A DNA stretch of 64,000 nucleotides from Candidatus Stramentimicrobium fermentans (GTDB taxonomy: Bacteria; Atribacterota; Phoenicimicrobiia; Phoenicimicrobiales; Stramentimicrobiaceae), in assembly GCA_012520575.1 (NCBI GenBank), contig JAAYOB010000005.1, positions 10,171 to 74,170 on the forward strand, in the 5' to 3' direction. Made by a program: the position numbers and the translations under genes. Positions 40,346-48,487 of this stretch are shown one piece after another; the first letter of the stretch is position 1; each line of letters begins with the position of its first letter. The notes beneath the pieces were generated by a model, which ran no database searches, was not told the origin of the DNA, and saw only the letters and a list, made by a program, of their open reading frames with translations.

Positions 40346-42073
40346 ATGACGCGCTCCCTAAAAGAAAAAGGAATAACCGGTGAATTTTTACTAAATTTAT
40401 TGGTCAGTAAAAAAATTATCACCAGCAAAGAGGCTGAAGAGATTTGCCGTAAACAAGGAGAAAACGGTTTACCCGTACAGAGAATAGTCCTGGATTCGGG
40501 CATTCTAAACAAAATAGAGATGATGCAATTACTCTCCTGCGAAATTGGTATTCCGTATTTAGATTTAGAGGGCAGGACCTTTGACCCTTCTATATTGGCA
40601 CTGGTCTCTGAAGAGCTTTCCCGTAAACATAATCTGGCTACCATCGATAAAAAGAACGGCAAACTTGTGGTAGCTATGGCTAACCCTTTAGATGTCTTCG
40701 CACATGATGAGATTAGAATCCTGACCGGCTTTGATGTGGAACCCTATTTGGCTTGCAGAGAGGATATCAACAAGGTTTTAGATTCAGTCTATGGAATTAC
40801 CGAAAGTTGGCAGCAGATGATAGGGGAGATATCGTCGCTTCCCATAGCGGCGGTAGAAGATGAAGTCGAAGATATGGAGATTACCAAAGGTATTTCAGAA
40901 AGTCACGAAGCCCCTGTTATTGCCCTGGTGAACCTTATTTTGCTTCGTGCCATTAAGGAAAGTGCCAGTGATATCCACATAGAACCGTTCGGCGATAAAT
41001 CATTAAGGGTGAGATATCGCATTGACGGAATACTGCACGATATTATGTCTCCTCCCCGCAGTTTGCATATGGCAATTATTTCGCGTGTAAAAATTATGTC
41101 CCACCTCAATATAGCCGAGAGACGTCTGCCGCAGGATGGCCGAATCAAAGTACAGGTACATGGCCGTGAAATCAATTTTCGGGTGTCCACCATTCCTGCT
41201 GTAAACGGAGAGAGTGCGGTATTAAGAATATTAGACCCGGCTCAAATCAGATTAGATTTAAAGACACTCGGCTTTTCCAAAGATAATTTTATTAAATTCC
41301 AAGAACTCATTACCAGGCCAAATGGTATTATTCTGGTTACCGGTCCTACCGGCAGCGGCAAGTCTACCACTTTATATGCCGTTTTAAATACCTTGAATTC
41401 TCTTGAAAAAAAGATAATGACCATAGAAGATCCGGTAGAATACCGCTTAGACGGGATAAATCAATTACAGGCAAAACCAAAAATAGGTTTGACATTTGCT
41501 GCCGGTTTGCGTAGTTTTCTGCGTCAGGACCCCGATATAATGTTAGTGGGAGAGATACGGGATAAAGAAACTGCTGAGATTGCTATTCAATCGGCGCTGA
41601 CCGGGCATTTAGTTTTAAGCACCCTGCATACCAATGATGCTCCCAGTTCTGTTATCAGATTGGTGGATATGGGCATTGAACCGTTTTTGATATCTTCTTC
41701 TGTGATAGGGATACTGGCACAGCGCCTGGTGCGTAAAATTTGCTCTTATTGTAAAAAAGAAGTGCCCATAACCAATGAAATAAAGAATATTTTAGGAGAA
41801 TGCCATTCAGATTCAGAGAATATTAAAATATTCCATGGTGAAGGATGCAGCCATTGTAAAAATACCGGATATAAAGGAAGAACTGCCATTTTTGAATTTA
41901 TGATAGTGAATGATTGTATTCGAGAATTAATCTATAGGAATGCCCCTCTTTCTGAAATTAGGGAGGCTGCCATTAAAGTAAATGGCATGCTTACTTTAAA
42001 AGAAGATGGTTTACAGAAAGTTATAGAAGGATTAACTACAATGGAAGAAGTAATGCGCGCCGCTTCCGCCTGA
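40346..42073 (+). CDS. pilB: GspE/PilB-family assembly ATPase, second paralogue (degenerate N-terminal motif)
   Basis: Walker A GPTGSGKST, LVGEIRD, TLHTND, CSYC...CSHC zinc module. First gene of the contiguous pilus locus, followed by pilC. Confidence 0.85.
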   Translation: MTRSLKEKGITGEFLLNLLVSKKIITSKEAEEICRKQGENGLPVQRIVLDSGILNKIEMMQLLSCEIGIPYLDLEGRTFDPSILALVSEELSRKHNLATIDKKNGKLVVAMANPLDVFAHDEIRILTGFDVEPYLACREDINKVLDSVYGITESWQQMIGEISSLPIAAVEDEVEDMEITKGISESHEAPVIALVNLILLRAIKESASDIHIEPFGDKSLRVRYRIDGILHDIMSPPRSLHMAIISRVKIMSHLNIAERRLPQDGRIKVQVHGREINFRVSTIPAVNGESAVLRILDPAQIRLDLKTLGFSKDNFIKFQELITRPNGIILVTGPTGSGKSTTLYAVLNTLNSLEKKIMTIEDPVEYRLDGINQLQAKPKIGLTFAAGLRSFLRQDPDIMLVGEIRDKETAEIAIQSALTGHLVLSTLHTNDAPSSVIRLVDMGIEPFLISSSVIGILAQRLVRKICSYCKKEVPITNEIKNILGECHSDSENIKIFHGEGCSHCKNTGYKGRTAIFEFMIVNDCIRELIYRNAPLSEIREAAIKVNGMLTLKEDGLQKVIEGLTTMEEVMRAASA

Positions 42074-42389: not shown

Positions 42390-43598
42390 ATGCCATCATA
42401 TTCTTTTAAAGCTCGGGACAGTTCCGGGCGGCTTTTGTCCGGCAGTATGGAAGCAAACAGCCGGGAAGCAGCTATCGAACGGCTGCATGAAATGAGATAT
42501 TTCATTGTTTCCGTGGAAGAAAAACGCAAAAGTTTGCTCTCTACCGAAATAACCATTTTCAAAACTATCACAATTCGGGATTTGGCCATCTTCTTCCGCC
42601 AATTTGCTACCATGGTTAAAGCCGGCTTATCACTGATTAGCTGTCTGGATATATTATCAAAACAGACTGAAAATAAGCTGTTGGCTAAAAAAGTAGATGA
42701 TATCAAAAAAAGTGTGGAAGGCGGTTCCACACTTGCCGAAGCCTTTGGCAACCACCCGGAAACTTTTTCTAAATTATATCTGAATATGATTAAAGCCGGA
42801 GAGGTCGGCGGAGTGCTCGATGATGTTCTGAATAGGATGGCTACCTTAATGGAAAAGGAATATGAGCTGCGGCAGAAAATAAAATCTGCTATGACTTATC
42901 CTTTATTTATCTTCGGTGCTGCGATGATAATGGCAGTATTCATGCTGACCTTTATCTTACCCCAATTTGTGGGAGTATTCCAATCCTTTGGGGGAGAGCT
43001 TCCTTTTCTGACTAAAATATTAGTATTTGTCACAATGGTTTTTAACCGTTTCTGGTATATTTTCCTGGCAGCTTTTGTTCTCCTTGTTTTTGCCTACATC
43101 GGTTATAGCCGTACCCAACATGGGCATAGAAATATTGACCGCATAAAATTAAAATTACCGATTTTCGGTAATCTGTTCCTTAAAACATCCATCACTCGTT
43201 TTGCCAGGACTCTGGGCACTTTAATCCAAAACGGTGTTCCCATTATTCAATCTTTGAAAATTTCCGCCGAATCTATCGGCAACGATATCCTTGCTGAAGC
43301 GGTAATGGAAGCATCTGACCGCATCAAAGAAGGTCAGAGCATCTCCGCACCGCTGGAAGAAAGCAAAGTATTTCCGCCCATGGTAACTCAGATGATATTA
43401 GTAGGGGAGGAGAGCGGAGGGTTAGAAACAATGCTCTTCAATGTTGCTAACTTTTATGATCAGGAAGTGGAAAGGGCCATAGAGCAGCTGACTTCTGTAA
43501 TTGAACCGATGATGATGATAGTGGTAGCCCTGGTAGTGGGTGTAATGGTTATCGCTATGTATCTGCCTATTTTCAGTATGGTGCAGCTGATACAATAA
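42390..43598 (+). CDS. pilC: Type IV pilus platform protein PilC (GspF family)
   Basis: 402 aa with two GspF repeats (GLSLISCLDIL..., GVPIIQSLKIS...) and three TM segments. Confidence 0.9.
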   Translation: MPSYSFKARDSSGRLLSGSMEANSREAAIERLHEMRYFIVSVEEKRKSLLSTEITIFKTITIRDLAIFFRQFATMVKAGLSLISCLDILSKQTENKLLAKKVDDIKKSVEGGSTLAEAFGNHPETFSKLYLNMIKAGEVGGVLDDVLNRMATLMEKEYELRQKIKSAMTYPLFIFGAAMIMAVFMLTFILPQFVGVFQSFGGELPFLTKILVFVTMVFNRFWYIFLAAFVLLVFAYIGYSRTQHGHRNIDRIKLKLPIFGNLFLKTSITRFARTLGTLIQNGVPIIQSLKISAESIGNDILAEAVMEASDRIKEGQSISAPLEESKVFPPMVTQMILVGEESGGLETMLFNVANFYDQEVERAIEQLTSVIEPMMMIVVALVVGVMVIAMYLPIFSMVQLIQ

Positions 43599-43624
43599 AA
43601 AAGATAAAATGAGGTGTTAGTATT

Positions 43625-44155
43625 TTGGCGGCAGCAGAAATCGAAAGTAATAATTTCCAACCGAACTGTAACAGCAATAAGATTGAAGAAAATTTAGCTT
43701 TTTTAAAAGAAGTAGTGCAGGAGTTTCAAAATTCCGGAGAGCCGGAAGAAGAACTTATGCAGGTAGGTTATATTGGACTATTAAACGCGGTTAACTTATA
43801 TCAGGAACATCAGCAGGATACTTTCCAACAATATGCCGGTAATTTAATTCGGGGAGAGATTCGTAACCATATCAGAGAAAAGAATAAGAAAGTAGATATA
43901 CCGGATTGGTTATCGGTAATAATAAATAAATTGTTGAATCAGATGCTTACTGCCTATCGGAAACAGTATAATAAATTTCCCAGTTTAGCGGAACTCTCTC
44001 AAATGCTCGAACTTTCACCGGAAATATTAAAAGAGGCCTTAAAGGCACGCAAGGCGGCAGTGGAGGTTTCTATCGACCAGCACAGAAGAAGCACTATTGA
44101 CTTACAGGAGCCTCTTGATATAGTTAAAATCAGAAAAGAAATCAATAAAAGGTAA
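43625..44155 (+). CDS. Truncated sigma-70 family paralogue: regions 2 and 3 only, no region 4
   Basis: VGYIGLLNAVNLYQ...FQQYAGNLIRGEIRNHIRE (regions 2.1-2.4) and VDIPDWL...FPSLAELSQMLELSPEILKEAL (region 3) align with the next ORF, but it ends at 176 aa without the region 4.2 HTH. TTG start after GAGGTG. The stop is 1 nt from the next ATG. Confidence 0.6.
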   Translation: MAAAEIESNNFQPNCNSNKIEENLAFLKEVVQEFQNSGEPEEELMQVGYIGLLNAVNLYQEHQQDTFQQYAGNLIRGEIRNHIREKNKKVDIPDWLSVIINKLLNQMLTAYRKQYNKFPSLAELSQMLELSPEILKEALKARKAAVEVSIDQHRRSTIDLQEPLDIVKIRKEINKR

Positions 44156-45361: not shown

Positions 45362-45452
45362 AAATCTAGACACAGCCAAATAAGGTTATCAGTTTTCGGT
45401 AAAAAGCGGGGTATATCCGAATACTGCCCGCTTAATCTGTTAGCATTTTTGT

Positions 45453-45575: not shown

Positions 45576-45616
45576 TTTCCTGTTTTAGGTCTAAAATTCT
45601 GAAAATAGGGAATAAT
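45569..45616 (+). promoter_or_regulatory. SigB-like promoter motif P1 with upstream GAAA-N3-TTTC palindrome (pilin 1)
   Basis: GAAAATATTTC (45569-79), 9 nt, GTCTAA (45589-94), 13 nt, GGGAAT (45608-13), then AATATAATATAG. Same architecture as P2 and P3. Confidence 0.55.
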
Positions 45617-45685
45617 ATAATATAGAAGTAAAAACCATAAATCATCATAAAAACAATAAAGTATTCAGACTTTTAGCAAAGCAAT

Positions 45686-46167: not shown

Positions 46168-46215
46168 GAAAATATTTCTATCTTTATGTCTAAAAAAGAT
46201 ATTATGTGGAATAAC
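46168..46215 (+). promoter_or_regulatory. SigB-like promoter motif P2 (pilin 2)
   Basis: GAAAATATTTC (46168-78), 9 nt, GTCTAA (46188-93), 13 nt, TGGAAT (46207-12), then AACATATAATAG. Confidence 0.55.
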
Positions 46216-46290
46216 ATATAATAGATACCTTAAAAGAGGAAAGAAGTACGGAAAACTATATTTATAATAAAAAAGGAGAATTTTAAAAAA

Positions 46291-48452: not shown

Positions 48453-48487
48453 GTCTAAAATTTGTTATAATATGGAATAATATATAG
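48453..48487 (+). promoter_or_regulatory. SigB-like promoter motif P3 (minor-pilin operon)
   Basis: CTGTTTT-GTCTAA (48453-58), 14 nt, TGGAAT (48473-78), then AATATATAGTG. Spacer is 1 nt longer than in P1 and P2. About 40 nt upstream of the fimT/gspH-like gene. Confidence 0.5.

Follow-up and report, generated by a model that had tools for sequence, protein, structure and literature searches.

A conserved sigma paralogue that ends before region 4 lies beside its complete relative in a type IV pilus locus of Atribacterota

Cellular sigma factors are described as unable to find promoters unless they have region 4 or a partner provides it. A different use of the sigma architecture is known from PhyR, of the alphaproteobacterial general stress response, which is sigma-like, has degenerate DNA-reading residues, and is a regulator rather than a specificity factor; in PhyR, which binds NepR, a receiver domain is joined to an ECF-like sigma2-sigma4 domain. 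In addition, an engineered form of sigma70 that lacks region 4.2 (Kumar et al., 1993) reportedly initiates transcription at extended -10 promoters and so must bind core RNA polymerase. Partial-sigma proteins that act on RNA polymerase include the SigO-RsoA pair of B. subtilis, Sig7-Sig8 of Tn916, gp33/gp34 of SPO1, and gp55/gp33 of T4 (bioRxiv 10.64898/2026.10.01.756105). Our search of the open-access literature recovered no paper on the sigma factors of Atribacterota and none on a natural cellular group-3 sigma factor without region 4.

The window analyzed here is a stretch of 64,000 nucleotides from Candidatus Stramentimicrobium fermentans, taken from a 1.58-Mb assembly that is 98% complete. 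It contains a type IV pilus cluster in which two adjacent sigma genes, here called S and F, are followed by a gene for a DUF6982 protein and then by pilin genes and a prepilin peptidase gene (Table 1). F is an ordinary member of the SigB/F/G family. S resembles F to a degree far above chance (34% identity over 149 aa; BLASTP E value, 3e-31), and the pairs of matching motifs that had been quoted from the two proteins when S was first picked out were all found. Pfam recognizes r2 and r3 in S and no other domain. The Sigma70_r2 match, over residues 20 to 87, has an E value of 7e-9; the r3 match is weak (0.022), and region 3 of S can be aligned with F and with SigF/sigmaB through regions 3.0 to 3.2 and is represented by the sigma3 helices of the AF2 model. 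Neither r4 nor r4_2 is matched in S or in any of its 15 orthologues. S and F both match the NCBIfam SigB/F/G profile (TIGR02980), but S spans only positions 8 to 143 of the 227 in the profile and scores 89.7 bits, below the curated cutoff of 234.35. The last residue of S, 176, precedes the linker between regions 3.2 and 4.1, whose YxSFxLPIED motif lies beyond the end point of S and is present in every full-length paralogue. The sequence-only reading of S as a truncated paralogue with regions 2 and 3 only is borne out by these comparisons.

By sequence, the best solved relatives of S are the sigmaB holoenzyme of S. aureus (8x6g) and SigF of G. stearothermophilus (1l0o), and S aligns with the SigB/SigF/SigG family through regions 2.1 to 2.4, 3.0, 3.1, and 3.2. 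The AF2 model of S (pLDDT, 74.7) predicts sigma2 and sigma3 helices, a long helix from residue 132 to 159, and a short tail helix, and the structural matches of the model are sigma chains. S differs from SigB, SigF, and SigG in having no region 4, in the altered DNA-contact positions of regions 2.3 and 3.0, and in its host, whose genome contains no anti-sigma kinase of the RsbW/SpoIIAB type.

Table 1. Coordinates of the genes, protein segments, and promoter sites discussed in the text; positions without a prefix are those of the window
Feature	Position	Strand	Remarks
PilB	40346..42073		Upstream of PilC
PilC (T2SSF)	42390..43598	+	In all f1 loci, the gene immediately 5' of S
GAGGTG Shine-Dalgarno sequence of S	43611..43616	+	AGAGGT-like ribosome-binding site, at equal distance in nearly all orthologues
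S, short sigma paralogue, 176 aa	43625..44155	+	TTG start; TAA stop at 44153-44155; regions 2, 3.0/3.1, and 3.2, without region 4
Region 2 of S, residues 20-87	43682..43885	+	From the Pfam r2 match and from columns compared with 32 full-length paralogues
Region 3.0/3.1 of S, residues 93-146	43901..44062	+	P-x-W-L and the family-specific LSPExLKEALKAR
Region 3.2-like segment (sigma finger) of S, residues 147-160	44063..44104	+	VSIDxxRRxxxD; S149, I150, D151, R154, R155, and D159 invariant
Short basic C-terminal tail of S	44105..44152	+	Stops just short of the YxSFxLPIED linker motif
F, full-length SigB/F/G-type sigma, 237 aa	44157..44870	+	ATG start; Pfam r2, r3, and r4
DUF6982 protein, 153 aa	44900..45361	+	Invariably the third gene of the triad
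Pilin promoter 1	45589..45619	+	GTCTAAAA-N12-GGAATAATATA; presumed F-dependent
Pilin promoter 2	46188..46218	+	Architecture as in promoter 1
Pilin promoter 3	48453..48484	+	Architecture as in promoter 1, with a 13-nt spacer
F-type site	C16:25348	-	GTCTAAAA-N12-GGAATAA; before a gene for a 723-aa lipoprotein-like protein
F-type site	C33:11694	-	GTCTAAAA-N12-GGAATAA; before a gene for a Sir2-type deacetylase
F-type site	C34:4132	-	GTCTAAAA-N12-GGAATAA; before the third SigB-like sigma gene of the genome
P0116 and P0117 loci	L040:5001-5672 and L044:1702-2394		Second truncated lineage

In the Atribacterota family to which the window belongs (f1), 17 of 22 genomes, from 7 of 10 genera, have an S-type gene with an open frame of about 180 aa. 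None was found in 64 genomes from six other families of the phylum; among the genomes compared, S is confined to f1. Intact orthologues are present at 15 loci, encode proteins of 174 to 186 aa with identities down to 49%, and in every case lie in the order PilC, S, F, DUF6982. No internal stop codon was seen in any of the 17 matches, and all copies share one end point, which follows the region 3.2 segment. Incomplete copies number just two, and both are artifacts, one (genome G005, L011) containing a 100-N scaffold gap and the other (G002) cut by a contig end. The ratio dN/dS, calculated by the Nei-Gojobori method (NG86) for pairs in which dS is unsaturated, is 0.10 to 0.15 for S, 0.12 to 0.13 for F, and 0.06 to 0.11 for DUF6982. 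The check that had been suggested for S, a search of its relatives for an intact short open reading frame with dN/dS below 1, therefore found one at 15 loci in 7 genera, with values far under that bound in the unsaturated pairs.

As a C-terminally shortened copy that adjoins an intact paralogue, S has the outward form of a functionless remnant of a tandem duplication, and a decaying duplicate was one of the possibilities raised by the sequence-only reading. S is not decaying, however, because its 15 copies are intact, their ends are constant, and its dN/dS equals that of F. Together with the spread over seven genera, the freedom from internal stops at identities as low as 49%, and the conserved ribosome-binding site, this leaves the remnant explanation with very little to recommend it. 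S is a real, conserved gene under selection, and it encodes a sigma2-sigma3-3.2 protein without region 4.

Other short sigma proteins were also found. A third sigma of 186 aa in genome G013 (L033) is short because of an N-gap, and the short profile-search hits P0135, P0198, P0238, and P0239 appear to be fragments. The ESM Atlas holds about 19 clusters of proteins of 172 to 192 aa, mostly from Bacillota, that have Sigma70 r2/r3 without r4; these may be additional sigmas that lack region 4, or they too may be fragments.

Translational coupling of S and F, proposed from their spacing in the window, where a single base separates the S stop codon from the F ATG, agrees with the junctions in the relatives: the two genes overlap by 4 to 29 nt at 12 of the 15 loci, and gaps of 16 and 38 nt are present at two. 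The last codons of S contain the ribosome-binding site of F. S also has the GAGGTG ribosome-binding site of its own that had been ascribed to it; start codons of S vary among TTG, GTG, and ATG, and an AGAGGT-type ribosome-binding site is kept at nearly all loci. The 1-nt distance between stop and start in the window and the overlap in most relatives could also be taken to mean that programmed frameshifting or readthrough links S and F in a single protein. This we find scarcely credible, given that the junction is variable (overlaps of 4 to 29 nt and gaps of 1 to 38 nt), that F is read in frame +1 or +2 with respect to S, that no conserved slippery site was found at the S/F junctions, and that no fused S-F homologue was found among proteins of 309 to 2,000 aa. 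Moreover, F has a complete region 2 of its own, the observation on which a frameshift fusion had been discounted from the start.

A sigma70-like promoter sequence inside the 3' end of S (TTGACT-16-TGnTATAGT; positions 44097 to 44124, plus strand), 33 nt before the start of F, was considered and rejected. It is kept in only part of the genus and may have arisen as a side effect of the coding sequence there.

The sister family, f2, offers a view of the same slot in a different state. There PilC lies directly upstream of two full-length sigma genes, U2 and, after it, D2, and these are followed by two or three DUF6982 genes. In a tree of 139 shared columns, the S proteins form a single clade (support, 100/96) whose stem is long, at 0.83, and which stands beside F, U2, and D2. 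AU tests reject neither the grouping of S with U2 (p = 0.35) nor that of S with F (p = 0.33), and tree and tests are also compatible with an older split. The identity of S is highest to U2, at 44 to 46%. From position and identity we infer that S is the orthologue of the upstream gene, in the U2 slot, from which region 4 and the spacer have been deleted. S arose a single time, within one family of Atribacterota, through loss of region 4, and its simplest source would be the upstream member of a pair of full-length sigma genes in the ancestral pilus locus. The long stem, followed by constraint, supports a reading of this history as neofunctionalization. Region 2.4 and the -35 recognition helix are nearly letter-identical among U2, D2, and F, and the three therefore probably read one type of promoter; by the same likeness, deletion of region 4 from one member of such a pair would be expected to yield a competitor of the other.

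To see which residues of S have been kept, we compared it column by column with 32 full-length Atribacterota paralogues, using a HMMER alignment to E. coli RpoD in which the sigma70 number equals the S residue number plus 360. S retains the core-binding helix of region 2.2 (L-x-Q-x-G-Y-I-G-L-L-N-A, including the equivalent of Q406), the GEIRxYIRxK of region 2.4, the P-x-W of region 3.0, and the region 3.2 residues listed as invariant in Table 1. In region 2.3, three positions that are invariant in the 32 full-length paralogues are changed: the equivalent of K426 is T in S, that of T429 is E or Q, and that of W433 is H, N, or I. The Y430 equivalent varies in S, being K or N in three genera. At the E458 equivalent, F and D2 have E or D, U2 mostly has K, and S has V, I, or L. 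Region 3.1 differs systematically between S and F. We take the sigma70 segments that contain K426, T429, Y430, W433, and E458 to hold the melted -10 strand and to read the extended -10 motif, so the pattern suggests that in S the contacts with core have been conserved and those with DNA have been eroded. Classical SigB and SigF have Pro at the position equivalent to W433, and therefore the change at that position is, by itself, no proof that melting has been lost. Region 3.2 is not known to act anywhere but in the polymerase channel, which means that its conservation in S argues for core binding.

That S kept its core-binding helix and finger and later lost the DNA-contact residues fits a dominant-negative reading. 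The explanation that we prefer, tentatively and with somewhat less than even confidence, is that S mimics a sigma but is promoter blind, continuing to bind core RNA polymerase and modulating the F-driven transcription of the pilin genes. S would dock on the core enzyme through regions 2.2 and 3.2, would be blind to the -35 element, and would have altered residues where a complete sigma holds the melted -10 strand. Made in fixed proportion with F from one mRNA, S would act as a natural dominant negative that competes with F, and with other sigmas, for core enzyme, and this competition could set a threshold or a damper on a small F regulon comprising three pilin promoters and three other sites. 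Some points count against the promoter-blind reading. The full conservation of region 2.4 would likewise be in keeping with a functional reader of the -10 element, and a general core competitor made in fixed ratio would be an odd design unless S receives some further regulatory input. A functional half-sigma, the other possibility raised at the outset, thus stands in its general form, S being conserved and under selection; of the modes of action suggested for it, competition for core appears to fit the pattern of substitutions best.

The promoters of the locus bear on what S can do. The three pilin promoters (starting at 45589, 46188, and 48453) give the consensus GTCTAAAA-N12/13-GGAATAAYATA, and the whole genome contains six perfect F-type sites, three of which are these promoters. 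The genes behind the other three (Table 1) suggest a small regulon and a sigma cascade. No F-type site was found before pilB or pilC, so there is no sign of autoregulation. A -35 box is present at all six perfect F-type sites, and across the genome the F-type -10 motif without a -35 box is no more common than expected by chance; the presence of the box at every site and the lack of a -10-only class support the promoter-blind reading of S. Separately, a single match to the classical sigmaB-like motif GTTTTC-N11-GGGTAT was seen in the window (positions 45392 to 45414, plus strand), 30 nt past the DUF6982 stop codon and some 270 nt upstream of the first pilin gene. About five such matches would be expected in the window, and this one is probably due to chance.

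The same promoters are relevant to the idea that S is a true initiation factor that makes no -35 contact, working either from a -10-type element alone or with an activator or another protein in the place of region 4, much as T4 gp55 relies on gp33 and the sliding clamp. Such a role would be in keeping with the conservation of regions 2.1 to 2.4, 3.0 (P-x-W), and 3.2 under purifying selection. It also has precedents. Split or partial sigmas exist (SPO1 gp33/34, T4 gp55/gp33, SigO-RsoA, and Tn916 Sig7-8), and sigma70 without region 4.2, a truncation of the same kind as that of S, is said still to start transcription at extended -10 promoters. That laboratory construct, however, keeps H455 and E458, whereas in S, which is natural and conserved, the equivalent of E458, the residue that reads the extended -10 TG, has been lost; F has kept it. 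The loss of the K426, T429, and W433 equivalents and the variability at Y430 are likewise the opposite of what would be expected, since an initiator independent of the -35 element should have stronger, or at least retained, -10 and extended -10 contacts, and for this reason such an initiator fits less well. Nor do F-type -10-only copies stand out in the genome.

A partner that could complete S was also sought. In the split sigmas, two genes jointly rebuild regions 2 and 4; S shares with them a partial sigma architecture, but its neighbor F is complete, and we found no region-4-only protein encoded next to S and no free orphan in the genome. The only region-4-only open reading frame in the genome (73 aa, contig C36) follows a region-2-only frame of its own. 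The DUF6982 protein is a poor candidate for the missing part, as it also occurs where both sigmas are complete. Overall, we consider it unlikely, if well above negligible, that S initiates transcription.

The pair on contig C36 (L037:679-1239, minus strand) is of interest in its own right. A 112-aa open reading frame that matches region 2 weakly precedes a single TAA, after which comes, in frame, the 73-aa region 4 frame. Most relatives have the halves in different frames, 100 to 800 bp apart, and in a few genomes they form a single frame of 218 to 229 aa. The pair looks like a natural two-gene sigma resembling SigO-RsoA.

Instead of acting on polymerase, S might act on a regulator of F. As a sigma mimic it would titrate away an anti-sigma factor, perhaps DUF6982, so that F is set free, in the manner of PhyR. 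In a genome that lacks an RsbW/SpoIIAB-type kinase, F would need another regulator, and DUF6982, which is invariably encoded alongside, lies where an anti-sigma gene is usually found. The number of DUF6982 copies loosely follows the sigmas, with two or three beside the two full sigmas of family f2 and one, sometimes two, beside S and F; the present genome has one. Because anti-sigma factors commonly bind core-binding surfaces, the conserved region 2.2 helix would fit a decoy as well, and the degenerate DNA-contact residues are reminiscent of PhyR. The likeness to PhyR extends only to the idea of sigma mimicry, S being a stand-alone group-3 sigma2-sigma3 protein without a receiver domain. Other features of the locus speak against a decoy. 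The systematic difference between S and F in region 3.1 would be unexpected if the two were bound by the same protein, and the invariant region 3.2 finger is hard to account for outside polymerase. In addition, DUF6982 is predicted (model pLDDT, 82) to fold into two small beta-barrels in tandem, a fold unlike that of any known anti-sigma factor; its fold search returned only generic Sm/Tudor-like small-beta-barrel matches, the best being to YaeO and Hfq at a Z score of 4.4. Weighing these points, we regard a decoy function for S as improbable.

A second lineage of truncated sigmas provides a comparison for the promoter-blind reading. P0116, P0117, P0118, and P0128, proteins of 223 to 230 aa, group with good support in one clade that is surrounded in the tree by full-length sigmas, and they stop right after region 4.1, without the helix-turn-helix of region 4.2. 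One full-length sigma near this clade carries the name Bipolaricaulia, and the lineage is probably from Bipolaricaulota, as judged only by the Atlas label. The context of these genes is their own. A conserved secreted protein of 390 to 400 aa, which is 51% identical between two loci and has no Pfam match, is always encoded upstream, an Rce1-like protease is encoded downstream at one locus, and neither pilus genes nor an adjacent sigma gene was found at the loci of this lineage.

Losses in the two lineages were counted over 44 positions that are at least 90% conserved in 46 full-length relatives. Six of these positions are lost in S, 12 in the P0116 lineage, and 5 in both, against a chance expectation of about 1.6 shared losses (hypergeometric p of about 0.004, from those counts). 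The shared losses include the K426 equivalent, which is a non-basic residue in both lineages, and an identical change of the T429 equivalent to Glu; the cut falls before region 4.1 in S and after it in the P0116 lineage. Forcing S and the P0116 lineage into one clade lowers lnL by 14.5 (AU p = 0.11), and the best tree separates them, so that common ancestry is disfavored, though not rejected. Be their origin convergent or old and common, loss of -35 reading is accompanied by the same changes in region 2.3, and the existence of a second truncated lineage with shared losses supports the promoter-blind reading of S. It is conceivable, although we hold it to be doubtful, that sigmas without region 4 make up an unrecognized class of regulators, “promoter-blind sigmas,” that evolved at least twice in the group-3 clade or once very early and that serve as dominant-negative partners of complete sigmas on RNA polymerase.

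S is a natural stand-alone sigma2-sigma3 protein under selection, encoded beside a complete paralogue in a pilus operon. If the promoter-blind reading is right, S would represent a new way of controlling RNA polymerase, in which competition by a truncated sigma takes the place of an anti-sigma factor, and its three small genes and one promoter type would make a simple test system. The changes shared with a second truncated lineage suggest that such a design is no isolated case. Atribacterota are abundant and have barely been cultured, so that any insight into their regulation is new.
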